Shown here piece by piece: positions 1 to 43,759 of a stretch of 64,000 bases of DNA (position 1 is the stretch's first letter; the number at the start of each line of letters is the position of its first letter). The DNA is from Christensenellaceae bacterium (GTDB lineage Bacteria > Bacillota > Clostridia > Christensenellales > CAG-138): positions 23,723-87,722 of the forward strand of contig JAISKB010000013.1 of NCBI GenBank assembly GCA_031261085.1, given 5' to 3'. The notes below the pieces were generated by a model, which saw only the letters and a list, made by a program, of their open reading frames with translations, searched no databases and had not been told where the DNA came from. A program made the translations under genes and the position numbers.

Positions 1-398
1 TCACAAGCGCATACGATGGCATCCGCCGGGCGATGCAGCGTGAGCCTGCGCATATCCTGGCAGATGAACGGCAGGCGCAGCCCTGCCTCGCGCGCCTTTT
101 GCGCGGCAATGTTCAGCATATCGGGGGAACAATCCACCCCCGTTACCGCATGCCCCGCCCGCGCCAGGCGAAGGGTCAGCGCGCCGGTGCCGCACGCGCA
201 ATCCACAATGTTCAAATTGCTTACAGGCAAAAAGGCTTGGATATACCCCGCCCAAGCATCGTAATCCACGCCCCGCATCAATTGATCGTACAGCGCCGCA
301 AAGCGCCCATATGCCTGCATTTTTTGCGTTACCACCCAATCCGTCCGGCTAAATTCCTGTTCCCATATTACAACATTAGCGCCGCTTGCGCAACCCAT
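1..398 (-). CDS. Class I SAM-dependent methyltransferase, partial. The C-terminal part lies beyond the window start. It is absent from the ORF track because it has no in-window stop.
   Basis: Manual translation from the ATG at 398-396 gives MGCASGANVVIWEQEFSRTDWVVTQKMQAYGRFAALYDQLMRGVDYDAWAGYIQAFLPVSNLNIVDCACGTGALTLRLARAGHAVTGVDCSPDMLNIAAQKA... VDCACGTG is the glycine-rich SAM motif I and GVDCSPDML the acidic motif II. The frame stays open to position 1. Confidence 0.75.
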   Translation of the reverse strand, partial: MGCASGANVVIWEQEFSRTDWVVTQKMQAYGRFAALYDQLMRGVDYDAWAGYIQAFLPVSNLNIVDCACGTGALTLRLARAGHAVTGVDCSPDMLNIAAQKAREAGLRLPFICQDMRRLTLHRPADAIVCAC

Positions 399-604
399 AT
401 GCCCCGCGTTGATACCGCTAGAGCGCGCTGTATACGCTGAAAAGGGTGGTTGTCCAAACCACTACTAAACAGCGGCAGGTCGGTTCACTCGTAGCGGAAT
501 GAGCGGCGTTGCCCAAAGGGGGCGGATAAGAGAAATAATTCACAGAGGGATAGATGATATTACGAAATGGGCGGTAAAATTGCCGCCTACAGTCCCTGAA
601 CTTT

Positions 605-1843
605 TCAGATGGATTTCTGTGTTTGTCTATCCCGTACTAACCGCATGAAATCGTCCAGATTCATAAGCCAGTCTTGCTGTTCAGGCTTATATGAAGCATG
701 TATTTTCTGCGGCAAAACAAGTTGAACATTTAACCCTTGCATTTCATTTGTTTGGTTTATGCTGATAGCCGATTCCAGTGTTAAAATATGTTTCGCTTCT
801 ATTCGATCAGCTTCTTGCAAAACCTGTCTCCATCTATCTTTACAGGTTGTTTTTACTCCAAGCATTGATAAATTGATTGCAGGAAAACTCTCGTCTCGAT
901 ATTCCAATATACCGGGGAAAAGAAAGTCTGGCTTCGCTTTTCTCTCGGTTTCAGGTGTTCGATCATAGCGTATAGTGTTTTTTTGAAGCAGAAATTCGAG
1001 ATGATTTTCCAAAGCGAGTCCAGCTCGGCTTTTGCGTCTATTTTGTGTTGATTTCGCAAATGCAAAAAAATCATCAACGTCAGTAAACCCTTGTTTCAGG
1101 CGTTGCCCCACAATATGTTTTTCGAGCGTTCTAAAGAGAATATCTTCACGCTCATAACAAGCCATAAGAACATCATCAACATCTGTTGTATAATCGATAT
1201 CACCAAGCGTTTCCCTTGTATATGCCGCTGATTTACGTGTTGTCGGGAAAGTCCCGTTAAATCGTCTTAACATTTCATCAAGGTAGGTTTCTTCGTTAAC
1301 TGCGACTTCAATTCCGATGTTCTCAAGAATAATGCGGGAAGCAAAAGCAATCCTGTCTTGTTCGAGTTCGGTTTCCTCCCTTATAGAGAAGCCGGTATGT
1401 TCCAAAGAAGAAAAGCCGAAAAGCCATAATACTTGGGATGCTATTGTAGTGTCTTGTTCCGCAACAATGACCAATAATTCATCCGTGCTTTTCTGTCTTG
1501 CGATTATCCAAACATCTCCAGCATTTGCAGCTTGCATCACCGTATTTGCCTTAAAATATAGCCTGTATTCCCAACGCATAACATCCCTTTCGAGTCGAGC
1601 TTTTTGGCGAGCGTCATACCATGTCATATCGCCATCTTCGGTTATTGGCTCATCATCAAAATCGGTAAAATACATGAATTTAGCATGATACCCTACTTTT
1701 CCTGTTGGTTCACCCAAAATACGCCGAAGTCCTTCTACCCCATTAAATTCATGTTGGTGTGACACCAATGTATTGGCCTCTACTTCACTTAGTATCTTGG
1801 CGGCGACTCCATCAAAGTATTGTGACAAAAAACCATTTTTCAT
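605..1843 (-). CDS. Type II restriction endonuclease of the EcoRII family, with an N-terminal effector-like domain and an EcoRII-C catalytic domain
   Basis: 412 aa, close to EcoRII in size. The C-terminal half has RKSRAGLALENHLEFLL, KPDFLFPG and GVKTTCKDRWRQVLQEADRI, which match the EcoRII-C signature as I recall it. Its start overlaps the vsr stop by 4 nt. A sampled line is about 38% GC. Confidence 0.8.
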   Translation of the reverse strand: MKNGFLSQYFDGVAAKILSEVEANTLVSHQHEFNGVEGLRRILGEPTGKVGYHAKFMYFTDFDDEPITEDGDMTWYDARQKARLERDVMRWEYRLYFKANTVMQAANAGDVWIIARQKSTDELLVIVAEQDTTIASQVLWLFGFSSLEHTGFSIREETELEQDRIAFASRIILENIGIEVAVNEETYLDEMLRRFNGTFPTTRKSAAYTRETLGDIDYTTDVDDVLMACYEREDILFRTLEKHIVGQRLKQGFTDVDDFFAFAKSTQNRRKSRAGLALENHLEFLLQKNTIRYDRTPETERKAKPDFLFPGILEYRDESFPAINLSMLGVKTTCKDRWRQVLQEADRIEAKHILTLESAISINQTNEMQGLNVQLVLPQKIHASYKPEQQDWLMNLDDFMRLVRDRQTQKSI

Positions 1844-2301
1844 ATTGAAACCTCCAGAAAGGTAGTGCTGGATTCAATCCACGATTTAAGTGTCTCCATA
1901 GCGTAGGGAAATTGATTTTTATCGCGCGTTACACATTCCCAAATTACGCATACCCGATAACCAAGTACAAACAGTTTGTCATAAACAATTCTGTCATTTT
2001 GCTTGTTTCCCATGATTTTCTTTTGCCAAAATTCTTGATTGGATTTCGGCCAAACAAAATATCGGCAAGTATGTCCATGCCAGAAACAGCCATTCACAAA
2101 AATAACCGCTCCAAATTTTTTTAGTACAATATCCGGCTTTCCTGGTAAAGTTGCATTGTTCACACGATAACGAAAGCCACTTTCAAACAGGGATTTTCTG
2201 ACTACAATTTCGGGTTTTGTGTTTTTGCATTTTATCCCGGCCATCATTCGACTTCTTGTCTGTGAGGTGAATTTATCCGGCATTTTGAACACGCTCTTCA
2301 C
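1840..2301 (-). CDS. vsr: Very short patch repair endonuclease
   Basis: 153 aa with TSQTRSRMMAGIKCKNTKPE, KPDIVLKKFGAVIFVNGCFWHGH and IWECV motifs. It overlaps the 3' end of the methyltransferase gene, as in dcm-vsr. Confidence 0.9.
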   Translation of the reverse strand: MKSVFKMPDKFTSQTRSRMMAGIKCKNTKPEIVVRKSLFESGFRYRVNNATLPGKPDIVLKKFGAVIFVNGCFWHGHTCRYFVWPKSNQEFWQKKIMGNKQNDRIVYDKLFVLGYRVCVIWECVTRDKNQFPYAMETLKSWIESSTTFLEVSI

Positions 2302-3517
2302 TATTTAAAAGATTTTTTACAAGTATACGAGCCGCTTCTTCAATTACCGGAACAACAACACTATTCCCAAATTGCCTATACGCCTGGGTATCGCTGACCG
2401 GAATACGAAAAGTATCTGGAAACCCCATCAAACGGGCGCATTCACGGGGGGTCAAACGCCGTGGTCTCTTGTGTACGCCTTGAGCAATCAGAATTTCAGA
2501 ACCGTCCTTGTAATATCTTGCCGATAAAGTTCTTGCTATGTCATCTTTTGCCACAAGACCATAGCCAAAACCATTACCTGCAAGGCGGTGTTTTTCAGCG
2601 TAATCTTGTAAATATTGCCATAATTTTGGTGTTAAAGTATATTTGGGATTCACACCGGCTTTTTCACCCGTCGTATATGGCTCTTCTGCATTTTCGGTAC
2701 CATCTTGTGGGTGTAATATAGATGATAACTTTATCATGCCTTTTTTAGGTAAAACCATTTCATCAAACGGATCATTGGAAATCGCATTTCTGAATCCTAA
2801 AATAATAAGACGTTCCCTGTGTTGTGGTACAAAATGTTGACCATCAATCACACGGAAGAAAATTTGATAGCCAAGTTCATCCTGCAATGTTTCGCATATG
2901 ACCTTAAAGGTGTTTCCATGGTCATGCGAAATTAGATTTTTTACATTTTCCAAGAGAAATGCTTTTGGTCTTTTAGCCGCAATTATACGTGCAACATCAA
3001 AAAATAGTGTTCCCTGTGTAGTACATTCAAATCCTGTCGGTCTGCCCAAAGAGTTCATTTTTGATACTCCTGCAATGCTGAAGGGTTGGCAAGGAAATCC
3101 GGCCAAAAGAATATCGTGGTCGGGTATTTCATTTTCATCGACTTGGGTAATGTCACCAACAAACTGATGGTTTTCTTTTTCGGGAAAGTTCTCAAGGTAT
3201 GTTTTTTGGGAAGCAGGATTCCACTCTGAAGTATAGATACAGGTGCCACCCTGTTTTTCAAATCCCATTCTGATACCGCCGATTCCCGCAAACAGATCAA
3301 TGAAAGTAAATCGATTTAAATTATCATTTCCGTCACCAAGAGACGTGAAAAGAATACGCCTAACAAGCACATCCGCCAAGTATTTGGGTGGAGCTGAATC
3401 ATTCGCTTCCCATCTGCGAACAGTACGAACATTGACACCCATAATATTTGCAATCTCCTGCTGGGTGTATCTTGTTCGAGCTTTTTTCAAAAGTGTTGCA
3501 GAATTGTCATTCATCAA
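2273..3517 (-). CDS. dcm: DNA (cytosine-5)-methyltransferase with an N-terminal HTH domain (M.EcoRII/M.SsoII-like)
   Basis: C5-MTase motifs are present: FIDLFAGIGGIRMGF (I), LLAGFPCQPFS (IV), ENVKNL (VI), QHRERLIILGF (VIII) and GNSVVVPV (X). The N-terminus YTQQEIANIMGVNVRTVRRWEAND is an XRE-type HTH. Confidence 0.92.
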   Translation of the reverse strand: MMNDNSATLLKKARTRYTQQEIANIMGVNVRTVRRWEANDSAPPKYLADVLVRRILFTSLGDGNDNLNRFTFIDLFAGIGGIRMGFEKQGGTCIYTSEWNPASQKTYLENFPEKENHQFVGDITQVDENEIPDHDILLAGFPCQPFSIAGVSKMNSLGRPTGFECTTQGTLFFDVARIIAAKRPKAFLLENVKNLISHDHGNTFKVICETLQDELGYQIFFRVIDGQHFVPQHRERLIILGFRNAISNDPFDEMVLPKKGMIKLSSILHPQDGTENAEEPYTTGEKAGVNPKYTLTPKLWQYLQDYAEKHRLAGNGFGYGLVAKDDIARTLSARYYKDGSEILIAQGVHKRPRRLTPRECARLMGFPDTFRIPVSDTQAYRQFGNSVVVPVIEEAARILVKNLLNSEERVQNAG

Positions 3518-3549
3518 AACTGCCCCCTTTCGTAATCAGGGAATCTTTA

Positions 3550-3583
3550 AGGACATTATGCCCTATTTTGTTCCCAGTGTAAA
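3550..3583 (-). promoter_or_regulatory. Candidate promoter of the R-M operon with an overlapping operator-like inverted repeat
   Basis: On the minus strand: TTTACA (3583-3578), a 17-nt spacer, then CATAAT (3560-3555). AGGACATTATGCCCT (3550-3564) is a 6-3-6 imperfect palindrome that overlaps the -10. Confidence 0.45.
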
Positions 3584-3721
3584 GAGGGATTCCAAAAAAA
3601 CGTGAGAACTTTTTTGCGTACTTTTATTGGACACCCCCCTTGATAAAACGCTCACAAGCCTAAGCTGATTGTGCATATACAGCGCTCCCTATTAAGAAAC
3701 GGGATTTGATTTACCTCCCCT

Positions 3722-4255
3722 TTAATCGTGCAGCAGCGCGTTGGCTTTTTCGCAAACCTCGTAGATAGCGTCGTACTGTTGGTCGATAAGCGGCGTTACC
3801 GTATCAATGCGCTTTTTGAGTACCTTCGTGTAGCAGAAGTATGGAAGCACCCAACCCACAAGGGCGGGAACCGCCAGAACAATCATCAGCGCAATCAAAC
3901 CGCCGAGGAACGCGAACACGCTGCCTGCCATACACGCCGTGCCGATGATGCCGATGGTAAAGGCGACAATGCTTGCCCCGGTCGTTTTGGAGTTTTCCAG
4001 ATTCTCAATCTCCTTGACATGGCTCTCGAATTGCCGCTGCAAACGGGTAAGCTCCGCCTTGTTGCGGATTTTGCGGTCGCGCTTAAACTTCAATCCACGG
4101 CAGGTGATTCCCAATAGTGGCGCGCTCGTTCCCTCTAAAATCCAACCGAAGCTCGGATAGCTGTCGGCATACAGCGATTCCATATCGCGCGATACGCTCA
4201 GTTCTTTGTACTCGTAAACGACGAAGTTCTCGCTGCTCTTTGTAATTTCACTCAT
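3722..4255 (-). CDS. Hypothetical membrane protein: soluble N-domain, coiled segment and two TM helices
   Basis: 177 aa with a hydrophobic block TGASIVAFTIGIIGTACMAGSVFAFLGGLIALMIVLAVPALVGWVLPYF. It starts 6 nt downstream of the preceding small gene, so the two look like an operon. Confidence 0.6.
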   Translation of the reverse strand: MSEITKSSENFVVYEYKELSVSRDMESLYADSYPSFGWILEGTSAPLLGITCRGLKFKRDRKIRNKAELTRLQRQFESHVKEIENLENSKTTGASIVAFTIGIIGTACMAGSVFAFLGGLIALMIVLAVPALVGWVLPYFCYTKVLKKRIDTVTPLIDQQYDAIYEVCEKANALLHD

Positions 4256-4260
4256 GATTT

Positions 4261-4509
4261 TTACTCCTTTTCGTTTTGGTTTGGCGTGTCACCGCCTGCG
4301 GTTGTTTCTTTTTTAGTTGAGGTTTCCTCGACGGGATTTTCATCGGGCGGCAAGAAAGTTTTGACGAATGCATCCTCCACTTTCTTATAACCGGCTACAA
4401 CCCCGTCCTCGATTTTTTGGTAGCCCTTGACAACGCCGCTCTCAACGACTTGATAGCCACCAACGACTGCTGTTTCGATTTTCTTTTCGGCCTCGATAAA
4501 TTTGCTCAC
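4261..4509 (-). CDS. Small protein with four tandem 11-residue repeats
   Basis: GTG start at 4509, preceded by AAAGGAGGA. Repeats are KIETAVVGGYQ / VVESGVVKGYQ / KIEDGVVAGYK / KVEDAFVKTFL, followed by an acidic/Thr-rich tail. Confidence 0.6.
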   Translation of the reverse strand: MSKFIEAEKKIETAVVGGYQVVESGVVKGYQKIEDGVVAGYKKVEDAFVKTFLPPDENPVEETSTKKETTAGGDTPNQNEKE

Positions 4510-4558
4510 GATAAATCCTCCTTTGATTCGGATGATGGTTCATCCATTTGATGTGCCT

Positions 4559-4617
4559 ATTATCCCACCCGGTTGTTTGAGAGATATTTGAGAATTGTTT
4601 GAGAAATGTTAATTCGA
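4559..4617 (-). promoter_or_regulatory. Activator-type promoter cassette: three TCTCAAA direct repeats at 11-bp phasing plus a -10 GATAAT
   Basis: Plus-strand TTTGAGA at 4576-4582, 4587-4593 and 4598-4604. The -10 GATAAT (rc) is at 4564-4559, 6 nt from the cassette. It lies upstream of the 4509 GTG gene. Confidence 0.65.
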
Positions 4618-5348
4618 AAACAGCGAACAGACATCTGCGCCTTCTTATGCTTGGCGGAAAAGCAACAAAACAGCGATGCGGAAACAGCTCCGACACAGTC
4701 CACAAGTACATCTTTCATCGTGTCGGTGATCGCTGCGTGTCCCGCAAGAATTTCTCCGCTTCCCAAGATTGCTTTTTGCATATTCAAGCCAAGCAAGCCG
4801 TCCATCATGTACTCATAAAGCTCCCAAATCCCGCCAATGCCCAGCGCGATGAAAAAGGCGAATACAGCACAAAATACAGGCGGCAGCTTGAGCGTTCCAC
4901 TGCTCCGTTCGCAGAGCGTTTGCAAGAGTTCAAAGCCGAGATAGGCAATCATGAACCCGCTTGTGCAATGCAGAATCACATCCCAATAAGGAATAATGTA
5001 GTAAAAATTCTGCACCTCGCCCAAATATATCGCGCCGAACAGGAACGCCGAGAACAGCGCGCGCAGCGATGTGGATATTTCAAAACGAAACAGCCGCTTG
5101 ATTAAATCCGGCAGATGTACCGCCGCAAGGCCGAGGATACACTCTGCAACCATCAGTAAATTGTCTTTCCCTGCACGGCTCGCATCGCCAAAGGCAGCCA
5201 CGGTTTCTCCATTTAATAGCCCATATGCAACTGCTGTTGCCGAAATTGCGAAGATTGCTGTTATTGCAAAATCAATAATTCTAGTGAGCTTCACCATTGC
5301 CCTGCGTGTTGCGGGCAATGTGCTGGCCGTTATTCCGACGCTATCCAT
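4560..5348 (-). CDS. Polytopic membrane protein, loosely YjdF/DUF2238-like
   Basis: 262 aa with multiple hydrophobic helices. The YWDVILHCTSGF and GGIWELYEYMMD motifs resemble DUF2238 as I recall it. The last ~17 codons are encoded by the downstream promoter cassette. Confidence 0.65.
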   Translation of the reverse strand: MDSVGITASTLPATRRAMVKLTRIIDFAITAIFAISATAVAYGLLNGETVAAFGDASRAGKDNLLMVAECILGLAAVHLPDLIKRLFRFEISTSLRALFSAFLFGAIYLGEVQNFYYIIPYWDVILHCTSGFMIAYLGFELLQTLCERSSGTLKLPPVFCAVFAFFIALGIGGIWELYEYMMDGLLGLNMQKAILGSGEILAGHAAITDTMKDVLVDCVGAVSASLFCCFSAKHKKAQMSVRCFRINISQTILKYLSNNRVG

Positions 5349-5377
5349 ATTCAGACCCTCCCCCGTTTTATGGTGTC

Positions 5378-5436
5378 ATTTTAGCAAGGGGTTGTTTGAG
5401 AGATATTTGAAATTTGTTCGAGAAATGTTAATGCGA
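5378..5436 (-). promoter_or_regulatory. Second copy of the triple-repeat promoter cassette
   Basis: 5390-5436 matches 4571-4617 at 43 of 47 positions. Repeats are TTTGAGA, TTTGAAA and TTCGAGA at 11-bp phasing. The -10 TAAAAT (rc) at 5383-5378 has the same 6-nt offset. RBS GGGGGAGGG precedes the ATG at 5348. Confidence 0.65.
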
Positions 5437-5511
5437 CATTCGAGTGCAGGCAAAAAAGCGGCTGTCCGATTATCTCAGACAGCCGCCGCATTTACATTTA
5501 TTTATTCAACC

Positions 5512-6579
5512 CTATTCCGTTTTTAGCTTGACCGTGAAGGTTGTACCAACGCCAAGCTCGCTCTTTGCGGATATTTGCCCGCCGACAAGCTCAATGACCT
5601 TTAAGGCAAGGGCAAGCCCCAATCCGTTACCCTCCTGTGAATGGGAGGTATCACCTTGATAGAATTTATCAAAAATGCGCTTGATTGTGGCTTCACTCAT
5701 GCCGCAGCCCGTGTCAGAAACTTCAACGGTCACGCTGTCCTCATCGGAGGTTTGCCGCAAAGCGACTGTGCCGCCTGCTTCGGTGAATTTCAAAGCGTTG
5801 GACAGCAGATTGTTCCAAACGATTTCAAGCAATCTTTCGTCTGCGTTGATAACGGCCTTGTCCTCGATGTCAACCTCAAAATTGATATTCCGTTCCTCCC
5901 ATATGTTTTCATGCGCAAGGGCGCAGTCGGTGAGTTGACGGCAAAGGTCAAAAGGCTCGACAACGGGCTTTATCCGCTGATTTTCAAGTTTGGAGAGCTT
6001 CAGTATGTTTGCGACAAGCGCGGATAATTTTTGGGATGCGGTGAAAATGGTGTCGGTATATTCACGGCGCAGCTCCGGGGTTAAATTTTCATTCCGAAGC
6101 GCCATTGTGTAGTTTTGGATTACGGAAATCGGCGTTTTTATTTCATGGGATACGTTTGAGATAAAGTCGGTCTTCATGGTTTCAATGCTGCCGAGCTCTT
6201 CCACCATTTTATTAAAGTCCTCATACATAATGTCGATGTAATCGGTCTTTTCAATCGGGTGGACAGGCTCTATATAAACGGAAAAATCGCCGCCTGCCAC
6301 CTGCGTTGCGGCTTCACCGAGTTTACGCATAGGCTTGTCGTAGTTGTTCTTTATCTGCTTGGCTATTATGAATATAAACGCGATAGATACAAGCGCCCAA
6401 TACCCCGACATGCCAAGCGCAAAGTCGATAGGTATCATCTTCAAATCAACATATTCAGCCAAAATGAGATACTGCCCGGCGCTCAATACCACCAAAACAG
6501 AAAAGGTTAAAATGATTCCGCGCCACAGCGGACGCTTTGCTTTGATACGGCTGTCCTTTTCCGCCTGCGTTCTTTTCAT
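5512..6579 (-). CDS. Sensor histidine kinase of the intramembrane-sensing type
   Basis: Two N-terminal TM helices are separated by a loop of about 15 aa. Also present: a HAMP-like segment, the H-box SHEIKTPISVI and the ATPase motifs NLLSNALKF, DTGCGM and GNGLGLALA. It overlaps the regulator gene by 4 nt. Confidence 0.9.
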   Translation of the reverse strand: MKRTQAEKDSRIKAKRPLWRGIILTFSVLVVLSAGQYLILAEYVDLKMIPIDFALGMSGYWALVSIAFIFIIAKQIKNNYDKPMRKLGEAATQVAGGDFSVYIEPVHPIEKTDYIDIMYEDFNKMVEELGSIETMKTDFISNVSHEIKTPISVIQNYTMALRNENLTPELRREYTDTIFTASQKLSALVANILKLSKLENQRIKPVVEPFDLCRQLTDCALAHENIWEERNINFEVDIEDKAVINADERLLEIVWNNLLSNALKFTEAGGTVALRQTSDEDSVTVEVSDTGCGMSEATIKRIFDKFYQGDTSHSQEGNGLGLALALKVIELVGGQISAKSELGVGTTFTVKLKTE

Positions 6580-7247
6580 AACAGCACCGCCTTATAGCCC
6601 AGGCCGTGAACCGTCAGGATTTTGAAGCCCTCGCAAACAGAGAATTTATCCCGCAGCTTTGCGATATATACATCCACCGCACGAAGCCCCGTGTCGGATT
6701 CCATGCCCCAAAACTCATCCAAAAGCTGCGCCCGCGAAAAGGTGTGCTTCGGGTAGGACAGCAGCTTGAAAAGAATATTAAACTCGCGTACCGTCACGGG
6801 AATTTCCTCCCCGTCAAGGGTGATGCTCGTTTCGTCCGCGTCCATCACAAGGCTGCCAACGACGAGCTTCTTGTTGGCGGCGATATTCGCGCGGCGCAGA
6901 AGCGCGCCGACACGCAGCACCAGCTCGTCTAAATCCACGGGCTTAACCATGTAATCGTCAATACCGAGCCGAAAACCCCTTTGCTTTGACGAAATATCGT
7001 CGCGGGCGGTCATGAACAGAATGGGGATGGTCTTATTTATCCCGCGCACGGCTTCGGCAAACGCAAACCCGTCAATCCCCGGCATCATGATATCGGAGAT
7101 GATGAGGTCAAACGGCGCGTTATACATCTCGTTATAGGCATCGTTTGCGCCCAAACAACCCTTTGCCGCATAGCCGTTATCGTTTAAGTAACTGCATACT
7201 ATTTGGTTGAGTTTTATATCGTCCTCAACGACGAGCAGGTTCATCAT
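6576..7247 (-). CDS. OmpR/PhoB-family response regulator
   Basis: Receiver domain LLVVEDD...DLIISDIMMPGIDG...MTA. The winged-helix C-terminus has LTVREFNILFKLL and VDVYIAKLRDKF. Confidence 0.92.
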   Translation of the reverse strand: MMNLLVVEDDIKLNQIVCSYLNDNGYAAKGCLGANDAYNEMYNAPFDLIISDIMMPGIDGFAFAEAVRGINKTIPILFMTARDDISSKQRGFRLGIDDYMVKPVDLDELVLRVGALLRRANIAANKKLVVGSLVMDADETSITLDGEEIPVTVREFNILFKLLSYPKHTFSRAQLLDEFWGMESDTGLRAVDVYIAKLRDKFSVCEGFKILTVHGLGYKAVLL

Positions 7248-7276
7248 AGATAAGCCTCCTTAAAGTTTACACGCCC

Positions 7277-7300
7277 ATTATAACAGGCAAATGTTTGAGA
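7277..7300 (-). promoter_or_regulatory. Promoter of the two-component operon with one conserved TCTCAAA site
   Basis: -10 TATAAT (rc) at 7282-7277. TTTGAGA at 7294-7300 starts 12 nt from the 5' end of the -10 hexamer (7282), the same offset as in the two cassettes. RBS AAGGAGG precedes the ATG at 7247. Confidence 0.55.
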
Positions 7301-7420
7301 ATTGTTAAAGTTTTGCAAAATTCAAAAGAATGGGGCAAGCCCCCCTTGACAAAACTTCAAGAAGTATATGATACTGTAAAAACATACCGTAATTCGACAG
7401 GAAGGCAACCGGCATTTCGC

Positions 7421-8824
7421 ATGGAATACGAAGCATATAAACAAAGCAAGCAAGAGAGCCAAAAAAAGCGCCGCACCGGCTTAAAGCGCGCGCTTTATAT
7501 CGTGGGCGCTCTGCTTTTGCTGGGCATACTCATCGCCGTTTCGCTGGGCTGGAACCTGCTCAGCGGGCTCAACCGCACCCCCTCCTCCACCTTCGAGGAT
7601 GAGGACGCCGTCACCTACACCCCCACTCCCGCCGCCGCGCCCACGGCCGCGCCGCCAACCCCCACCCCGGCCGCCACGCCCGAGCCTACCCCGCTCCCCT
7701 TGAGCGAGCTATATACGCAAACCATATTGGCCCCCGAAGCGCTGGAGCGGATGGAGCAAAACCTGGCCGACACCCGCTTTATACAAATACTGCTCATCGG
7801 CGTGGACAGGCGGGGCTCCTCGGGCAATTCCCGGGCGGATACCGTGATGATCGCCACCATCGATAAAAAGAACAACCGGCTTAAGCTCACCACGCTCATG
7901 CGGGATATGCTCGTGAACATACCCGGCCATGGCTACGGCAAAATGAATACCGCCGCCGCGGTGGGCGGCGTGGAGCTGCTCACCCAAACCATCAACGAAA
8001 ACTTCCATATGAACCTGCACGAGTATGTGTTGGTCGATTTCAATATGTTCGAACAGATTATCGACGAGCTGGGCGGCATCACCATCAAAATGAAAGCCGA
8101 AGAGATCAGCGCGGCCAACGATTGCATCGCCGGGCTCAATAAGGAGCGCGGCGAATACCTGTGGGATGGCTTCATCTTTGCGGAGGCCGGCAACGTAAAG
8201 CTGACCGGCAAGCAGGCGCTGGGCTATGCCCGCGTACGCCATATCGACAGCGAATTTTCCCGCACGACGCGGCAGTTTAAGGTGCTCAACACCGTGTTTG
8301 CGGTGTTTAAGCAGGCCGGCGTCAGCAAGCAATATAAGCTGCTGCAGGGCATTTTGCCGCTGGTCAAAACCAACATAACCAACGCCCGCATACTGGAATG
8401 CGCGGTGGGCGCGCTGGGCATGGATGTAAACGGGCTGCTCTACTACCGCCTGCCCGCGGAGGATCTGTTTGAAAACGGCAAGTGGGAGCGCAAATTCGTA
8501 TTCCTATGCGATATACCCGCCAACGCGCAAGCGCTGCATGGCTTCCTGTTCGACTCGCAGGAGGCCGCGGATGACGCAAAGGTGCTTACGCCCGGCGCTT
8601 CGCTGCCGCCGCGCACGCCCAGCGTATACCTCGGGGAGGATGGAAATTACTATTACTATTCCACCGGGCAGGCGGTGCCCCCCTCCACCCCCGATTTTGA
8701 AACCTCCGCCGAAGGCCCCACCTACAGCTACAACGGCATCATCGTGACCGTAGATGAGTACGGCAACCTCGTGGATATGAACGGGAACATCGTGGCGGCG
8801 GCAGGCACATGGCAGGCGCAATAA
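7421..8824 (+). CDS. LytR-CpsA-Psr (LCP) family cell-envelope phosphotransferase with a Pro/Ala/Thr-rich linker
   Basis: LLIGVDRRGSSGNSRADTVMIATIDKKNNRLKLTTLMRDMLVNIPGHGYGKMNTAAAVGGVELL, then LTGKQALGYARVRH. The track ORF starts at TTG 7295. I prefer the ATG at 7421, which follows GGAAGG. Confidence 0.85.
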   Translation: MEYEAYKQSKQESQKKRRTGLKRALYIVGALLLLGILIAVSLGWNLLSGLNRTPSSTFEDEDAVTYTPTPAAAPTAAPPTPTPAATPEPTPLPLSELYTQTILAPEALERMEQNLADTRFIQILLIGVDRRGSSGNSRADTVMIATIDKKNNRLKLTTLMRDMLVNIPGHGYGKMNTAAAVGGVELLTQTINENFHMNLHEYVLVDFNMFEQIIDELGGITIKMKAEEISAANDCIAGLNKERGEYLWDGFIFAEAGNVKLTGKQALGYARVRHIDSEFSRTTRQFKVLNTVFAVFKQAGVSKQYKLLQGILPLVKTNITNARILECAVGALGMDVNGLLYYRLPAEDLFENGKWERKFVFLCDIPANAQALHGFLFDSQEAADDAKVLTPGASLPPRTPSVYLGEDGNYYYYSTGQAVPPSTPDFETSAEGPTYSYNGIIVTVDEYGNLVDMNGNIVAAAGTWQAQ

Positions 8825-35688: not shown

Positions 35689-37368
35689 ATGGATAGGGTG
35701 AGCAGCACGATTTGGATTTGGATACTGGCGCAGGCCGTTATCACAGGCGTCGTAATTTTTGTAATACGGCGGGCAAAGCGCGGCAGGCCCGCGATAAAGA
35801 AGCCGGGCAGCCGCGCGGATGAAAGCCGTGAGATGCGCGAGCTCAAGCAGATGCGCGCCCGCTCCTTAAACGTGCCGCTCTCCGAAAAAACAAGGCCGGG
35901 CAGCATGGAGGATATCATTGGGCAGGGCGATGGCATACGCGCGCTGCGCGCCGCGCTGTGCGGACCCAACCCGCAGCATGTGCTGATATACGGCCCGCCG
36001 GGCTGCGGTAAAACCTGCGCCGCGCGGCTTGTGCTGGATGAGGCCAAGCGCTGTGCGGATTCCCCCTTTGACGCGGACGCCAAGTTTGTGGAGATCGACG
36101 CGACCTGCGTGCGCTTCGATGAGCGCGCCATTGCCGACCCGCTGTTGGGCTCGGTGCACGACCCCATCTATCAGGGCGCGGGGCCGCTAGGGTCGCAGGG
36201 GGTGCCGCAGCCCAAGGTGGGGGCGGTGAGCCGCGCGCATTGCGGCGTGCTCTTTTTGGATGAGATAGGCGAGCTGCACCCCGTGCAGATGAACAAGCTG
36301 CTGAAGGTGCTGGAGGACCGCAAGGTGTTTTTTGACAGCGCCTATTATTCCAGCGACAACGCGGCCATACCGCGCTATATTCACGACATATTCCAAAACG
36401 GCATGCCGGCGGATTTTCGGCTGGTGGGCGCCACCACGCGCCGCCCGGAGGATATCCCGCCCGCCCTGCGCTCGCGCTGTGTGGAGCTGTACTTCCGCCC
36501 GCTGGGCGAGGATAGCCTGCTGCAGATTGCGCAGGGCGCGGCGCAGCGGCTGGGCTACGCGCTGGAGAGCGGCACGGGGGAGCTGTGCGCCACCTACTGC
36601 GCTTCGGGCCGGGATGTCGTAAACATGATACAGCTCGCCGGCGGCGCCGCCTATGCGGAGGGGCGCAGGCATATCGCGCAGGGGGATATACGCTGGGTGG
36701 CGCAAATCAGCAACTGCAGGCAGCGCCACGCGCAAAGGATACCCGCCGCGCCCGGTGTGGGTTCCTCCATCGGCCTGGGCGTCACCGGCGAAGGAACCGG
36801 CGCCGTGATTGAAATCGAATGCACGGCCCGCCCCGCCCCGCAGGGCAGCGGCAGCCTGGATGTGAGCGGCGCCGTGGAATATGAGGAGTTGGAGCTGCGC
36901 GGCCGCAAGCTGGGCCGCAAAGGCACGGCCCGCACCTCCGCCGAAAACGTGCTCTGCGCGTTCGGCAAACGCTTTGGCCTGGAATGCGGCGGGTATGATA
37001 TCCGCTTTAGCATGCCCGGCGGTATGCCTATGGATGGCCCCAGCGCAGGCATCGCGCTGGCCGTGGCGCTCATGAGCGCGGTGAGCGGCAAGGCGCCGGT
37101 CGCTTCCCTGGCGCTCACCGGGGAAATCACCGTGCAGGGGGGTGTGCGGCCCGTGGGCGGCGTGCGCGAAAAGCTCATCGCCGCCGTGGCCGCCGGGGCC
37201 AAAACGATATTGATCCCCAAAGCCAACTATGAGCCGCAGTTCGATGAGCTGGATGCGGAAATCATCGCCGTGGAGGATATTGCCGAGGTGATGCGCGTGG
37301 CATTCGATATCCCGCATGAGGCGGATATGGGAACCGGCGTGCTGCCGCTGCTGTGCACCACGGCTTGA
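35689..37368 (+). CDS. lonB: LonB-type membrane-anchored ATP-dependent protease (sporulation Lon-like)
   Basis: N-terminal TM IWIWILAQAVITGVVIFVI, GPPGCGKTCAAR Walker A, and MDGPSAGIALAVALMSA for the Lon protease serine. The start is uncertain: ATG 35689 or GTG 35698. Confidence 0.85.
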   Translation: MDRVSSTIWIWILAQAVITGVVIFVIRRAKRGRPAIKKPGSRADESREMRELKQMRARSLNVPLSEKTRPGSMEDIIGQGDGIRALRAALCGPNPQHVLIYGPPGCGKTCAARLVLDEAKRCADSPFDADAKFVEIDATCVRFDERAIADPLLGSVHDPIYQGAGPLGSQGVPQPKVGAVSRAHCGVLFLDEIGELHPVQMNKLLKVLEDRKVFFDSAYYSSDNAAIPRYIHDIFQNGMPADFRLVGATTRRPEDIPPALRSRCVELYFRPLGEDSLLQIAQGAAQRLGYALESGTGELCATYCASGRDVVNMIQLAGGAAYAEGRRHIAQGDIRWVAQISNCRQRHAQRIPAAPGVGSSIGLGVTGEGTGAVIEIECTARPAPQGSGSLDVSGAVEYEELELRGRKLGRKGTARTSAENVLCAFGKRFGLECGGYDIRFSMPGGMPMDGPSAGIALAVALMSAVSGKAPVASLALTGEITVQGGVRPVGGVREKLIAAVAAGAKTILIPKANYEPQFDELDAEIIAVEDIAEVMRVAFDIPHEADMGTGVLPLLCTTA

Positions 37369-37543
37369 GGATATTTTGCGGTGGTCAAAAAAATGGCAAG
37401 TCCATTTTAGGAAATTAAAATCTTTGTTTTCGGGGGCAAGCCCCCGAACCCCCGCAGGAGCAAATTTCAACCCCGTTTTATCCCAAAGTAACTTGAAGTA
37501 ACTTCTCTCCGCAGGCTAACGACCTAAACACCCTCTGCAAAAT

Positions 37544-37628
37544 TTATTCCCTCCATGCGAAGGGTTTCTTTGGACGGCGCCCCGTCCCCAGCCGGGGTGC
37601 GGGGAGCGGGCTCCCCGCGAAAACGTTC
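37544..37628 (+). repeat. GC-rich intergenic repeat, module Y (locus B)
   Basis: Aligns with 17591-17674. It is preceded by the GGGGGCAAGCCCCC mini-hairpin (37432-37445), as at locus A (17437-17450). Confidence 0.8.
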
Positions 37629-37645
37629 CCAAAAAGCCCAATCGT

Positions 37646-37680
37646 GGTGCGGGGACAGATGCCCCTGCAAAAACGCTCCC
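37646..37680 (+). repeat. Extra tandem copy of the hairpin sub-module of module Y
   Basis: GGTGCGGGGACAGATGCCCCTGCAAAAACGCTCCC compared with GGTGCGGGGAGCGGGCTCCCCGCGAAAACGTTCCC immediately upstream. Confidence 0.6.
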
Positions 37681-37728
37681 TTAAACCAAAAAAGCCCCTC
37701 CCGAAGGAGGGGGTTAAGTAGGCATGTC

Positions 37729-39126
37729 CTATTCCTTTTCCGCAATCTGCCTGCCCATCAGCACGCCCATCACGGAAGCCATCATAAGCCCGCGCGTCCA
37801 GCCGCTGGAATCGCCCAGGCAATGCAGCCCCTGAATATTGGTGTTAAACGCCGCGTCCATCTTAACGCGGTTGCTGTAAAACTTGAGCTCGGGCGAATAC
37901 AGCAGCGTCTCCTCGGCGGCAAACCCCGGCACCACATGATCCATCGCCTTGATGAAGTTGATGATGTTCATCATGGAGCGATAGGGCATGGCCGCCGTGA
38001 TGTCGCCGGCCTCCGCATCGGGCAGGGTGGGCTTCACGTTGGCGTAATGCAGCTCCTTCGCCCAGGTGCGCTTGCCGTCGAGTATATCGCCAAAGCGCTG
38101 CACCAGTATGTGTCCCGCCCCCAGCATGTTGGTCAGCTCCCCCACCTTTTGCGCATAGGCGATGGGCTGGTTAAACGGCACGCTGAAGTTGTGCGAGCAG
38201 AGTATGGCCACGTTGGTGTTTTCGCTCTTCAAATCCTTATACGAATGCCCGTTCACCACCGCCAGGTCGTTATCATAATTCTCCTGGCTCACAAACCCGC
38301 CGGGGTTTTGGCAAAACGTGCGCACCTTGTTTTTGAACGGCGGCGGATAGCCTATGAGCTTGGACTCATACAGCACCTTGTTCACCGTTTCCATCACCTC
38401 GTTGCGTACCTCCACCCGCACGCCGATATCCACCGTGCCGGGCTGGTGCGCGATGTTGTGCTCCGCGCAAAGCCTTTCGAGCCAATCGGCGCCGCGGCGG
38501 CCCGTGGCCACCACCACATGCTTGGCCTGCACTGTCTGCTCCATTTTTCCATCGGTAATATATACGCCCTTACAGGTTTCGCCCTCGAGTATCAGGTTGG
38601 TGCACTCATAGCCAAATCGGATTTCGACACCCGCTTGCTGTAAATATTTTTCTATCGCAAGGTAAAGGCTCTGCGCCCTTTCGGTGCCCAAATGGCGTAT
38701 GGGGCAATCCACCAGCTTGAGGCCGGCGCGTATGGCCCGCCTGCGTATATCCTTCTTCTCCTGCGATTCCTCTATGCCCTCTATCTCTTCGGAAGCGCCG
38801 AATTCGAGGTATATCTTATCGGTATAATCGATGGTTTCCTGCGCCAGCCCTTCGCCGATCAGCTGGGGCAAATCGCCGCCCACCTCATAGCTGAGCGAGA
38901 GCTTCCCATCGCTAAAGGCCCCCGCGCCCGAAAACCCGGTGGTGATGTGGCAATAGGGCTTGCAGTTGGCGCACCTGCCCAATTTCCCTTTGGGGCAGCG
39001 CCTGTTCTCTACGGATTGCCCCTTTTCCACAATGAGGATGCTCTGCCTGCCCCCCTTGCGCAAAAGCTCCAGCGCCGTGAATATGCCCGCCGGCCCCGCG
39101 CCTATTATCACTACATCCTTATGCAT
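37729..39126 (-). CDS. FAD-dependent oxidoreductase (COG2509-like)
   Basis: VVIIGAGPAGIFTALEL dinucleotide motif and the CPKGKLGRCANCKPYCHITTGFSGAGAFSDGKL segment. Confidence 0.8.
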   Translation of the reverse strand: MHKDVVIIGAGPAGIFTALELLRKGGRQSILIVEKGQSVENRRCPKGKLGRCANCKPYCHITTGFSGAGAFSDGKLSLSYEVGGDLPQLIGEGLAQETIDYTDKIYLEFGASEEIEGIEESQEKKDIRRRAIRAGLKLVDCPIRHLGTERAQSLYLAIEKYLQQAGVEIRFGYECTNLILEGETCKGVYITDGKMEQTVQAKHVVVATGRRGADWLERLCAEHNIAHQPGTVDIGVRVEVRNEVMETVNKVLYESKLIGYPPPFKNKVRTFCQNPGGFVSQENYDNDLAVVNGHSYKDLKSENTNVAILCSHNFSVPFNQPIAYAQKVGELTNMLGAGHILVQRFGDILDGKRTWAKELHYANVKPTLPDAEAGDITAAMPYRSMMNIINFIKAMDHVVPGFAAEETLLYSPELKFYSNRVKMDAAFNTNIQGLHCLGDSSGWTRGLMMASVMGVLMGRQIAEKE

Positions 39127-39169
39127 ATCGCACCTCCCGTTTGACGTAAGTCATTTATATATAAGCTGT

Positions 39170-39208
39170 AAAAAAATGTTCGGCAGAGTAATAGGAACCC
39201 TGCCGAAC
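39170..39208 (-). terminator. Intrinsic terminator of clpX
   Basis: On the minus strand, GTTCGGCAG, a 13-nt loop and CTGCCGAAC are followed by ATTTTTTT. Confidence 0.8.
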
Positions 39209-39243
39209 AGTTGGAAAGCAAATATGCCTTGGCGGCGCTTGCC

Positions 39244-40524
39244 TTAACATGCGCCGCTTTCCCGTTGCTGCGGCGCGCTGAGCCGGGGCGCCTCCTCGTT
39301 GTAAACGAAAATGGGCGGCGACTTCTTTTCTATCACATCGCGCGTGATTTTGCAGCTTTTCACGTCTGTTCGGGAAGGTATATCGAACATGATGCCCAGC
39401 ATCACATCCTCGAGTATGGCGCGCAGGCCCCGCGCGCCGGTCTTGCGTTCCATCGCCTTTTTCGCCACCGCCACCAGCGCGTCCCGCTCAAAGGTGAGGT
39501 CCACGCCATCGAGGCTGAACAGATAGCGGTACTGGCGCGTAAGCGCGTTTTTAGGCTCGGTCAGTATATCGATCAACGCCGACTCATCGAGCTGCTGCAG
39601 CGTGACAATGATGGGCATACGCCCCACAAACTCGGGTATCAGCCCAAATTTGAGCAAATCCTCCGGCAATATATGCTTGAGCACCTCGCCGATATCCTTT
39701 TCGACTATGCTCTGCACATCGGCGCCAAAGCCCATCAGCTTTTTGCCGGTGCGCTTGCCTATGATATCCTCGATGCCCGCAAACGCGCCGCCGCAAATGA
39801 ACAGTATATTCGCGGTATCGATTTGGATGCATTCCTGCTGCGGGTGCTTGCGGCCGCCCTGCGGGGGCACGCTGGCCACCGTACCTTCGAGTATTTTGAG
39901 CAGCGCCTGCTGCACGCCCTCGCCGGAAACATCCCGCGTGATGGAGGGATTTTCGCTCTTGCGGGCAATCTTATCGATTTCGTCGATATAGATGATGCCC
40001 TTTTCGGCGCGCTGCACATTATAGTCCGCCGCCTGAATGAGCTTGAGCAATATGTTCTCTACATCCTCGCCCACATAGCCGGCCTCGGTCAGCGAGGTGG
40101 CGTCCGCCACGGCGAAGGGCACATCCAGTATTTTCGCAAGCGTTTGAGCCAGCATCGTTTTGCCGCAGCCCGTGGGCCCCAGCATGACGATATTGCTCTT
40201 TTGCAATTCTACATCCCCCGCGCTTTTGCCCGCGGTGATGCGTTTGTAGTGGTTATAAACCGCCACGGCCAGCGCCCGCTTTGCGGCATCCTGCCCTATC
40301 ACATATTGATCGAGCGTTTTGGCTATGTCGTGCGGTTTGGGTATATCTTTAAACTCCGCATCGGTATCCGCCTTAAAGTAATCATCCTCGATGATCTCCT
40401 GGCACAGCTCGATGCATTCGTCGCAGATATATACGCCCGGCCCCGCTACCACGCGGCGAACCTCTTCTTGCGATTTACCGCAGAAGGAGCACCGCACAGA
40501 GCCGTTATCTTCAAAAACTGTCAT
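39244..40524 (-). CDS. clpX: ATP-dependent Clp protease ATP-binding subunit ClpX
   Basis: Zinc finger CSFCGK...[12 protein letters not shown] and IYIDEIDK. Confidence 0.95.
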
Positions 40525-40527
40525 CCG

Positions 40528-41115
40528 TTACCTCCTTGGAGGGATAATTTCATCTATGAGGCCATAAGCCTTGGCGGCTTCGGCATCCATATAGTTGTCA
40601 CGCTCGGTATCCAACGCCACCTTTTCGAGGGGCTGGCCCGTGCGCTCGGCCAAAATCGCGTTCATCTTCTTTTTGATTTTGAGCAGCTGCTCGGCCTGTA
40701 TCGCCACATCGGTGGCCTGGCCCCGCGCGCCGCCCAGCGGCTGGTGTATCATCACCTCGCAATTCGGCAGTGCGCGGCGCTTGCCCTTCACGCCCGCCGA
40801 CAGCAAAAACGCGCCCATGCTGGCCGCCATGCCGATGCAAATCGTGCCCACATCGCACTTGATGTACTGCATGGTATCGTAGATGGCCATGCCCGCCGTA
40901 ACGGAGCCGCCGGGGCTGTTGATGTAAAGGCTGATGTCCTTATCCGGGTCATCGGCTTCTAAAAACAGCATCTGCGCCACGATTAGGTTGGCCGTATCAT
41001 CATCTATCTCGCCGCCCAGGAATATGATGCGATCCTTGAGCAGGCGGGAATAAATATCGTAGGAGCGTTCGCCGCGGTTGGTTTGTTCCACCACCATCGG
41101 GATTAATCCACTCAT
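40528..41115 (-). CDS. clpP: ATP-dependent Clp protease proteolytic subunit ClpP
   Basis: [22 protein letters not shown] (catalytic Ser) and MIHQPLGG (His). Confidence 0.95.
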
Positions 41116-41151
41116 ATCATTTCCTCCTATTGTACTCTATATCCGGCAATG

Positions 41152-42615
41152 TCATTCCCCGGCTTTTTCGGCGGCCGTGTCTTCTTTTGCCGCTTTTTTC
41201 GCGCGGGGCTTCTTTTCTTTCGGCGCGGCCTCGGCCTCTGGCTCGGCCTTTGCCGCCTTCGCCTTCTTTGGCGCGGCCTCGGCTTCCGGCTCGGCCTTGG
41301 GCTTTGCCGCCTTCGCCTTCTTCGGCTTGGCCGCCGTCTCTACCGCGCTGTCCACCATAACGGCCAGCGTCTTATCCACCCGCACCTGGTCAGAAAAATA
41401 AAGCTTGTCGTCCTCGGTCAGGTTTTTGAGGAAGTCCTCGGTGCCGCCGCCAAACTGCTCGGCATACTCCGCAACCTTGGCCGATATTTCATCCTCGGCC
41501 GCCTCGATATTTTCGGCCTTGGATACCGCCTCGATCACCAGCTGGCTCTTCACGCGCGTCTTGGCGTCCTCCCGGCAATTATCCCGCAAGGTCTCCAGCG
41601 TGGCGCCGGTGTATTTAAAGTAATCCTCCAGCGAAATGCCCTGCATGCTCAAACGGTACCGCATATCCTGCAAAAGGGAATCGATCTGCCGCTCCACCAT
41701 CACCTCGGGCACTTCTACCTGCGCGTTTTCAACCACCTTGCGCACCACGGCGTTTTCCTTCTCGATTTGCGCGTCCTTTTTGGCCTGCTCCTCCAGCTCT
41801 TTGCGCTTGGCCGCACGAAGCTCCTCGAGCGTATCGAATTCGGAAACATCCTTGGCGAATTCGTCATCCAGCTCGGGCAGCTCTTTCACCTGTATGCCGT
41901 TCACCTTCACAGCGAACACGGCCTCTTTGCCGGCCAATTCCTCAGAATGATATTCCGCGGGGAAGGTGACGGTAAGCTCCTTTTGCTCCCCTATGGCCAA
42001 GCCTATCATCTGCTCTTCAAAGCCGGGTATAAAGCTGCCGCTGCCTATCACCAGCGTTTGCCCCTCGGCGGCGCCGCCCTTAAAAGGCACGCCCCCGACG
42101 CTGCCGCTGTAATCGAGGTTAACGGTATCGCCGTTCGCTACCGGGCGCTCCACATCCACCATGCGCGCCACGTTTTCGCGCTCGCGCGAGATGACAGCCT
42201 CCACGGCGTCATCCGTAACATTATACGCCTGCTTTTCTACTTCTATACCCTTATACTGCCCCAGCGTTACCTCGGGTTTTACCGTAACTTCGGCGCTGAA
42301 CACCAGCGATTTGCCCTCCGTCGGCAGCTCCACGATGGATACGTCCGCCCTATCTACCGGCTGTATGCCGCTTTCCTTTACGGCCGCGTCATAGGCCTCG
42401 GGGTATACGATGTCGAACGCATCATCAAAAAAAGCAAGCGGGCCATAGATGTTTTCGATTACCTTGCGCGGCGCCCTACCCTTGCGGAAACCGGGGACGT
42501 TGAAACGTTTGGCCGCCGTATAATATGCTTTTTGCACAGCCGTCTCAAATTGCTCCGCCGGCACCTCAATGGTGAGTTTGGCCTTGCTGCCCTCTAGCTT
42601 TTCCAAAGTTGCCAT
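41152..42615 (-). CDS. tig: Trigger factor with a C-terminal Lys/Ala/Glu/Pro-rich extension of about 55 aa
   Basis: N-terminus FRKGRAPRKV (ribosome-binding GFRxGxxP), a central FKBP-like domain, and the tail AKPKKAKAAKPKAEPEAEAAPKKAKAAKAEPEAEAAPKEKKPRAKKAAKEDTAAEKAGE. Confidence 0.93.
   Translation of the reverse strand: MATLEKLEGSKAKLTIEVPAEQFETAVQKAYYTAAKRFNVPGFRKGRAPRKVIENIYGPLAFFDDAFDIVYPEAYDAAVKESGIQPVDRADVSIVELPTEGKSLVFSAEVTVKPEVTLGQYKGIEVEKQAYNVTDDAVEAVISRERENVARMVDVERPVANGDTVNLDYSGSVGGVPFKGGAAEGQTLVIGSGSFIPGFEEQMIGLAIGEQKELTVTFPAEYHSEELAGKEAVFAVKVNGIQVKELPELDDEFAKDVSEFDTLEELRAAKRKELEEQAKKDAQIEKENAVVRKVVENAQVEVPEVMVERQIDSLLQDMRYRLSMQGISLEDYFKYTGATLETLRDNCREDAKTRVKSQLVIEAVSKAENIEAAEDEISAKVAEYAEQFGGGTEDFLKNLTEDDKLYFSDQVRVDKTLAVMVDSAVETAAKPKKAKAAKPKAEPEAEAAPKKAKAAKAEPEAEAAPKEKKPRAKKAAKEDTAAEKAGE
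41222..41323 (-). repeat. Tandem 48/54-bp coding repeat in the tig tail
   Basis: 41222-41269 and 41270-41323 both begin GGCGCGGCCTCGGC and end TTTGCCGCCTTCGCCTTCTT. They encode (K)KAKAAK(PK)AEPEAEAAP twice. Confidence 0.75.
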
Positions 42616-42852
42616 GTAAAACCTCCGAATGTTACCTTATTACTATATACGAAAATGCCGCCATTCGTTACCACATACGCGCATATCGCCATACGCAGTA
42701 TAGATTAGCACAGTTCCGCATGTTTTGCAATGAAAATCGCGTGTACTGCAGGTGTCAAATTGGTGAAAAAAGCTGAATTATCCCCGCCCTCGGTTCTCCC
42801 CCGCAGGAGAAATGCAAACGGGTTTATGTCCGACGGGGTGCGGGGGCCTATA

Positions 42853-42914: not shown

Positions 42915-42962
42915 AACAAATTTTTTGACCCCCGCAGGGGGTTAGGAGGTAGGGCCATGCCC

Positions 42963-43757: not shown

Positions 43758-43759
43758 AC

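Follow-up and report, generated by a model that had tools for sequence, protein, structure and literature searches.

The stretch analysed here, called the window, comprises 64,000 nt of contig JAISKB010000013.1 from a Christensenellaceae bacterium with a 2.2 Mb genome, and it contains a small module, all of whose genes lie on the minus strand, made up of a two-component system (response regulator and histidine kinase) and genes for a DUF2238 membrane protein, an 82-aa (amino acid) repeat protein and a 177-aa membrane protein. Phased 11-bp repeats precede the promoters of the module and very probably represent the operator through which the adjacent OmpR/PhoB-family regulator would activate its own small gene set. 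The genes and the terminator of the module are as follows.

6576..7247, minus strand: response regulator of the OmpR/PhoB family, 223 aa, with Pfam domains PF00072 Response_reg (3.2e-23) and PF00486 Trans_reg_C (2.2e-17), both over the cut-off
5512..6579, minus strand: histidine kinase, 355 aa, with HisKA at residues 135-200 and HATPase at 247-354; 4-nt overlap with the regulator gene
5457..5487, minus strand: intrinsic terminator of the regulator/kinase operon, a 13-bp stem and T run, conserved 3' of the kinase gene in the related contig L117
4560..5348, minus strand: membrane protein assigned to DUF2238 (YjdF-like) by precomputed annotation, 262 aa, residues 243-262 being encoded by repeat cassette 1
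4261..4509, minus strand: protein of 82 aa containing 11-residue repeats, encoded by the opening gene of the target operon
3722..4255, minus strand: 177-aa membrane protein of a family with two transmembrane (TM) helices, beginning 5 nt after the 82-aa gene

Two 47-bp segments, at 4571-4617 (cassette 1) and 5390-5436 (cassette 2), are identical at 43 of 47 positions on direct reading, with mismatches at 4592, 4594, 4600 and 4614, just as the initial annotation had described them. Its statement that each cassette holds three copies of TTTGAGA was correct for cassette 1 (4576, 4587 and 4598 on the plus strand, 11 bp apart) but not for cassette 2, which contains a single exact TTTGAGA at 5395, then TTTGAAA (5406) and TTCGAGA (5417). 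The cassette end is separated from the -10 box by 6 nt in both cases, as annotated, with ATTATC at 4559-4564 and ATTTTA at 5378-5383 reading GATAAT and TAAAAT in the gene sense. The promoter of the regulator/kinase operon carries an exact TTTGAGA at 7294 at the same offset as in the cassettes, where the annotation had seen a single unit but two are present. The gene-sense spacing is thus identical at the three promoters, namely TCTCAAA, 11 nt, then GATAAT, TAAAAT or TATAAT (7282-7277), and TGn stands directly 5' of the -10 box at all of them. The reported lack of a -35 hexamer agrees with a sigma-70 scan, which gives no -35/-10 consensus pair at any of the three. The conserved repeat unit is an 11-mer ending in AAACA, of which the heptamer TCTCAAA is a part, and conservation is highest of all in a fourth unit lying upstream, TTAACA (4612-4607; 5431-5426); the units of the regulator promoter are TTAACA at 7308-7303 and ATTCTCAAACA at 7302-7292. 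The operators and core promoters are the following, with scores from the position weight matrix (PWM) described below.

4574..4613, minus strand: operator 1 (cassette 1), ATTAACA / TTTCTCAAACA / ATTCTCAAATA / TCTCTCAAACA, 41.6 bits, the best site genome-wide
4552..4573, minus strand: core promoter of the 82-aa/177-aa operon, 9-nt spacer ACCGGGTGG including TGn, -10 box GATAAT at 4564-4559, predicted start A4552
5393..5432, minus strand: operator 2 (cassette 2), ATTAACA / TTTCTCGAACA / AATTTCAAATA / TCTCTCAAACA, 33.4 bits, second-best genome-wide
5371..5392, minus strand: core promoter of the DUF2238 gene, 9-nt spacer ACCCCTTGC (TGn), -10 box TAAAAT at 5383-5378, predicted start about 5371
7292..7309, minus strand: two-unit operator of the regulator/kinase operon, TTTAACA / ATTCTCAAACA
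7270..7291, minus strand: core promoter of the regulator operon, 9-nt spacer TTTGCCTGT (TGn), -10 box TATAAT at 7282-7277, predicted start about 7270, with family-type geometry

Close relatives of the module are found on L117 and L133, two contigs of one Joint Genome Institute (JGI) metagenome. Operator 2 differs from its L117 orthologue by three substitutions, and the core promoter of the DUF2238 gene is orthologous to that of the 79%-identical gene in L117. The 20-mer ACTTTAACAATTCTCAAACA is identical upstream of the regulator gene of locus L035, whose product is 79% identical, and the regulator promoters of L035 and L043, like that of the window, place the two strongest units immediately 5' of the 9-nt spacer. 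Between the predicted start at 4552 and the ribosome-binding site, the putative 5' leader of the 82-aa gene contains a hairpin, GGATGAaccaTCATCC (4530-4545), which the 91%-identical relative L133 retains with one loop change.

The comparison set consisted of 80 loci around the best kinase relatives (kinase identity 49-66%), one genome per species, from Sporobacter, Thermoanaerobacterium, Paenibacillus, Sedimentibacter, many Oscillospiraceae and Lachnospiraceae, Enterococcus, Vagococcus and one Eggerthellaceae genome. In a pilot search for three phased TCTCAAA-like heptamers, 17 of the 80 loci matched, and 21 of 22 cases were on the kinase strand with a -10-like box downstream. A 39-nt operator PWM was then iterated, with training exclusively on loci of orthologous kinases in other genomes (the window genome excluded), and sites were accepted above the 99th percentile of a reversed-sequence control; at least one such site was present in 70/80 loci, and 194/203 matches were on the operon strand, the ten loci lacking a strong match being mostly short contigs or having a two-unit site of the right geometry. 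The full operator comprises four 11-bp units, wTTAAyA, wTTCnSAAACA, awwCnCAArCA and n6AAAyA, followed by 9 nt and TAnnnT. Two further features were not part of the PWM: TAnnnT lies exactly 9 nt past the last ACA in 111/129 sites (about 4 expected by chance), and TT directly precedes the first AAyA in 108-109/111 sites. The -35 position of the family sites reads ACAwww rather than a conserved hexamer, a conserved CA is seen at +6/+7 after the -10 box, where the start site is expected, and CATCA occurs at the predicted start in many family promoters. The sites show a pho-box-like layout, with head-to-tail 11-bp repeats over the -35 region, no -35 hexamer and a fixed -10 distance; the window cassettes agree with the family operator in every unit, and by these alignments the phased repeats are conserved beside orthologous kinase/regulator pairs. 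One member of the set, an actinobacterial metagenome-assembled genome (MAG) of the Eggerthellaceae (L058), has the complete module, including a 40-bit operator upstream of its regulator gene, which suggests transfer across phyla.

Within the window, the dimer pattern at up to 2 mismatches gives 4 matches (0.19 expected), all within the two cassettes, and the genome-wide scan returned 10 matches against 6 in the reversed control, four of the ten being this locus. On the PWM, only the two cassettes score high in the window genome (41.6 and 33.4 bits), with a next best of 13.9 and a control maximum of 14.9. The two-unit rule with a -10 box gives 4 matches there, 3 of them the promoters of this locus; the fourth, on contig C10, has its own TTGACA -35 and was regarded as chance. 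We searched the 12 whole genomes from which 12 of the loci derive (about 60 Mb) with a strict pattern (three AAACA, spacer and TANNNT, at most 1 mismatch). The 9 matches, against 2 in the control, comprise 6 in the fetched loci, 2 beside a second Vagococcus module and 1 that has its mismatch in the -10 box and no module nearby. That second Vagococcus module (L115) possesses a regulator 70% and a kinase 52% identical, two 177-aa homologues and operators; with two paralogous copies in one genome, identical operators would have to be kept from cross-talk in some way.

These distributions bear on the idea that the cassettes resemble each other merely through recent local duplication, or as a generic repeat with no regulatory meaning. 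Low-information positions common to both cassettes (TATCTCTC, AACC) do show common descent, and a 1-mismatch dimer occurs twice on another contig of the genome, C26. The C26 pair (TTTGGGAATAATTTGAGA), however, lies across stop codons in a set of duplicated paralogues and points the opposite way to the downstream gene, and was judged unrelated, while the motif is conserved at orthologous loci with unrelated flanks and a fixed -10 distance and is absent elsewhere in the window genome. The initial annotation had itself named a widespread generic repeat as the finding that would count against it; the motif turned out to be confined to modules of this family, and this explanation is extremely improbable. 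Contig C26 at 36000-44744 (L011) contains an array of paralogous genes, in which genes for toxin-like proteins with conserved Rhs/polymorphic-toxin-type N-terminal parts and variable C-termini alternate with 338-370-aa lipoprotein-like (immunity-like) genes, the junction sequences being duplicated.

The assignment of the operator to the regulator was drawn from gene content. The regulator is OmpR-type, as annotated, with an N-terminal receiver and a C-terminal winged-helix Trans_reg_C domain; its best solved relatives are DrrD, PrrA, MtrA and RegX3, its identity is 63-80% across 77 related loci, and its recognition helix LRAVDVYIxKLRDKF is nearly invariant. It is the sole DNA-binding protein present throughout the 80 loci, and the operator is assigned to it for this reason. 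Another DNA-binding protein, or a special sigma-factor promoter, that travels with the islands would be a competing source of the repeats, given that the link between regulator and DNA is indirect and that a TetR-like gene is among the genes after a site in L082. This is nevertheless very unlikely, since the OmpR-type regulator alone is constant over loci from many Firmicutes families and one actinobacterial genome, and since four 11-bp head-to-tail units suit winged-helix dimers and not a sigma -35 element, with no conserved hexamer 17 nt from the -10 box. The locus L082, from an Oscillospiraceae MAG, has at least 8 operator-bearing promoters in 10 kb, the largest local regulon seen, with targets that include the TetR-like gene, cardiolipin synthase, a lipoprotein and 82-aa/177-aa family genes.

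The target genes recur across the comparison set. The first open reading frame (ORF) after a site is the regulator, or a ~290-aa membrane protein heading its operon, in 33 loci; a 177-aa family member in 27; an 82-aa repeat family member in 21; an SDR or epimerase in 7; DegV in 3; a radical SAM enzyme in 3; and cardiolipin synthase, an MMPL transporter and an ABC ATPase in 1 locus each. The 177-aa family is present in 66 of the loci, the 82-aa family in 34 and DUF2238 in 0. Thus, of the regulon predicted earlier, the regulator's own promoter and the 82-aa and 177-aa genes recur elsewhere, but only this island lineage has DUF2238 as a target; across 30 related genomes the DUF2238 homologues (~40% identity) all lack the cassette and are uninformative for the operator. 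Neither the 82-aa nor the 177-aa protein has an above-threshold match to a Pfam or NCBIfam family, and the 177-aa family comprises more than 1500 database clusters, all unnamed and none with a Pfam domain. For the 262-aa protein, PF09997 scored 16.8 bits in our own scan (cut-off 26.4), and precomputed annotation gives PF09997 for it and for all 120 homologues listed, two of which JGI names YjdF. Motif, geometry, conservation, exclusivity, recurrent target families, insert and deletion junctions are all shown by comparison.

In the kinase, hydropathy marks two hydrophobic segments (about 17-40 and 54-74, peaking at 17-35 and 54-72) joined by a loop of ~13-16 aa, in line with the short loop noted initially, and there is a HAMP-like linker (HAMP match 17.4 bits, below the threshold of 25). 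It fits the intramembrane-sensing class, which has two TM helices, a loop of less than ~25 aa and then a cytoplasmic transmitter. No NCBIfam equivalog even approached its cut-off for the two-component proteins (PhoB 166/270, PhoR 176/334, YycF 117/340, VanR-B 131/480, PnpS 208/400, WalK 167/725).

In the mechanism that we infer from sequence, which extends to binding by the regulator, activation over repression, stoichiometry, start sites and signal, the four head-to-tail 11-bp units of the two target promoters (core AAACA, best TTAACA) would span about -58 to -22 and replace the -35 element; a gap of exactly 9 nt separates the last unit from an extended -10 (TGn with GATAAT or TAAAAT). After phosphorylation, two regulator dimers would bind in tandem and recruit RNA polymerase in the manner of PhoB and Bacillus subtilis PhoP, and this activation would switch on both the 82-aa/177-aa operon and the DUF2238 gene. 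For its part the regulator/kinase operon, with a perfect extended -10 and only the two promoter-proximal units, may combine basal expression with positive feedback; the strong terminator at 5487-5457 stands between the kinase gene and cassette 2. The kinase, which lacks an extracellular domain, presumably reads a membrane-borne signal, possibly with the 177-aa family.

The adjacent regulator might instead bind the same sites as a repressor, occluding the -35 region of self-active extended -10 promoters. The TGn of the three window promoters would let them function in the absence of a -35 element, and the sites overlap the polymerase footprint. Against this, T is present at the TGn position in only about 1/4 of the family sites, and many family -10 boxes are poor (TAGGAT, TAAACT, TACAAT), so that unaided activity is unlikely; head-to-tail repeats ~10 bp before the -10 box in this orientation are the activator layout of PhoB, B. 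subtilis PhoP and CiaR, and autoregulated two-component operons with such sites are usually under positive control. Repression is accordingly an unlikely reading, and activation by the adjacent regulator is preferred. Several points weigh against the activator interpretation: occupancy of the -35 region is compatible with repression too; the membrane-stress signal was guessed solely from the kinase topology and the kinds of target genes; the -10 box of cassette 1 begins with G instead of T; the PWM was iteratively refined and is A-rich, so that some lower-scoring sites in AT-rich genomes may be false; and the regulator-promoter site reaches only 13.5 bits on the four-unit PWM, within the control range, and was called an operator because of the two-unit rule and its conservation in L035 and L043.

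The layout has well-known parallels. The pho box of Escherichia coli PhoB consists of direct repeats with an 11-bp period (7 conserved and 4 variable bases) that stand in for the -35 element and stop ~10 bp short of the -10 box; two-box promoters bind two PhoB dimers, and the operon is autoregulated. Promoters activated by B. subtilis PhoP carry four TT(A/T/C)ACA repeats on the coding strand from about -60 to -20, and the CiaR repeat of Streptococcus pneumoniae lies ~10 bp upstream of the -10 box. The window system resembles PhoB in its OmpR/PhoB-family regulator, its 11-bp head-to-tail repeats in place of the -35 element and its own-operon site, and differs from it in the core (AAACA/TTAACA, not CTGTCAT), in targets that are small membrane proteins and not phosphate genes, and, unlike PhoB's partner, in a kinase with neither a PAS domain nor a link to the Pst transporter. 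Four TTAACA-type hexamers every 11 bp make the layout match with B. subtilis PhoP closer than that with PhoB.

Other systems share single features. The CiaR site NTTAAG-N5-TTTAAG (PMC4938410) is a direct repeat of the same 11-bp period, and the window plus strand reads TTTGAG-N5-TTTGAG; in the transcription sense, however, the window repeat is CTCAAA (opposite orientation), with four units against two, and the CiaH-type kinase has an extracellular domain that the window kinase lacks. The WalR/VicR consensus is TGTWAH-N5-TGTWAH (PMC4168254), which a TTAACA-type half-site fits on the other strand (TGTTAA), whereas the window kinase, unlike that of WalRK, has no extracellular or PAS domains and the system is patchy, not essential core. 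SaeS has a linker of ~9 aa plus HAMP, and SaeR binds GTTAA-N6-GTTAA with an 11-bp period (review PMC5083920). The window system is like BceRS-type systems, LiaFSR and SaeRS in having a two-TM minimal-loop kinase and a small local regulon with membrane proteins and its own operon, and unlike SaeR, BceR and GraR in its motif; no SaeP/SaeQ homologues were seen, and this comparison concerns kinase topology, regulon and motif. The window module contains no ABC transporter, whereas BceRS-type systems have an adjacent BceAB-type transporter as their sensor, and in contrast to LiaFSR-type systems its regulator is OmpR-type and not NarL-type, with no LiaF-like gene among the window ORFs. Three further candidates were set aside: HitRS, with an HssR-like repeat and an ABC transporter unlike this module; the CiaR-like BAS0540, whose site TTTAAG-N5-TTTAAG differs; and Clostridioides difficile CmrR, whose inverted repeat ACAAT-N8-ATTGT differs. 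The motif strings TCTCAAACA, TTCTCAAACA and TGTTTGAGAA and their variants matched only unrelated primers and short hairpin RNAs in the literature, and no described member of the module family was found in the openly searchable literature.

The GC content is 40-50% over ~400 to 7300, against 57-60% outside, and none of the 7 same-genus and 29 same-family genomes checked has the 177-aa gene. In five same-genus genomes the gene of window 3-332 lies ~400 nt from the LytR-CpsA-Psr (LCP-family) gene, which starts at 7421 in the window, and therefore the window has an insert of ~6.9 kb composed of a restriction-modification islet and the module. By this comparison the module sits in a horizontally acquired insert and is patchy, not essential core equipment. 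With the whole module as query, a plasmid collection gave only a weak regulator match, with no evidence of plasmid origin.

Several observations concern the edges of the insert. The sequence CCCCCCTTGAyAAAAC occurs at 3634-3649 and 7340-7355, 15/16 identical, as the only two copies genome-wide, exactly flanking the two-component module; the pair could be an insertion-site duplication, although one 15/16 direct repeat within 7 kb is no great improbability (~0.3 expected by chance). The TTGACA in a TTGACA-18-GATACT promoter of the LCP-family gene comes from the right-hand copy (7340-7355), which the mini-hairpin GGGGCAAGCCCC (7332-7345) adjoins. The regulator promoter is overlapped by a 509-aa ORF (7295-8824) that begins at TTG 7295; the LCP-family gene itself probably starts at ATG 7421, downstream of the promoter at 7346-7375, as in relatives, whose alignments begin at residue ~8-20. 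At ~400-440, GCGTTGATACC...CTGTATACG resembles the conserved LCP-gene promoter of the five same-genus genomes (GCGTTGACAGCC-N-TTGTATACT) and seems to be the stranded ancestral LCP promoter, ~7 kb from its gene owing to the insert.

The two JGI contigs also clarify the position of cassette 1, which the initial annotation had listed as an oddity within the 3' end of the membrane-protein ORF; the cassette does lie there, but as a deletion junction and not as a designed overlap. On L117 the kinase gene, whose encoded C-terminus has 95% identity, is followed in turn by the terminator, a cassette, three genes, another cassette, a DUF2238 gene (79% identical, with a C-terminus of its own) and an ABC ATPase gene. 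On L133 (91% DNA identity) the cassette is intergenic, past the stop of the upstream gene and before the 82-aa/177-aa genes, with an ABC ATPase gene on the contig, and homology to the window starts exactly at the 5' edge of the cassette. The homology of the 262-aa protein to its 79% relative stops at residue 242, the TAA stop of its ORF falls within the -10 box of the 82-aa/177-aa promoter, and by these alignments its 20-codon tail is the cassette read in frame to that TAA. Cassette 2 aligns as a hybrid: on its upstream side it is flanked like the first L117 cassette, on its downstream side like the second. Relative to L117/L133, the window has neither the cassette-bounded three-gene block nor the stretch from DUF2238 codon 242 to the next cassette. 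A deletion would have joined the 3' end of the DUF2238 gene to an otherwise intergenic cassette. The blocks of genes by which close relatives differ are bounded by near-identical promoter cassettes.

The proposed mechanism would be of a textbook kind, with a PhoB/PhoP-like activator layout, and the regulatory module itself seems to be undescribed. The operator wTTAAyA-N5-AAACA-N6-AArCA-N6-AAAyA plus 9 nt and a -10 box provides a concrete signature for a two-component family that has hundreds of relatives in gut and environmental Firmicutes and for which no named member, signal or regulon was found, and it allows the regulon to be read straight from sequence in any genome with the system. The 177-aa two-TM and 82-aa repeat families, abundant and unnamed, emerge as its core output. 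More tentatively, the kinase-regulator pair, the four-unit operator and the 177-aa and 82-aa families may together form a widespread, undescribed, horizontally mobile membrane-stress/remodelling module of Firmicutes, functionally analogous to LiaFSR-LiaIH or Psp, with the promoter cassettes serving as recombination joints for plugging in or dropping genes. Its variable targets would then include DUF2238, SDR/epimerase, DegV, cardiolipin synthase, an MMPL transporter, a radical SAM enzyme and an AI-2E-family transporter, and the cassette-bounded gene differences between near-identical islands illustrate clearly, on a small scale, that such a mobile module may acquire and shed targets.

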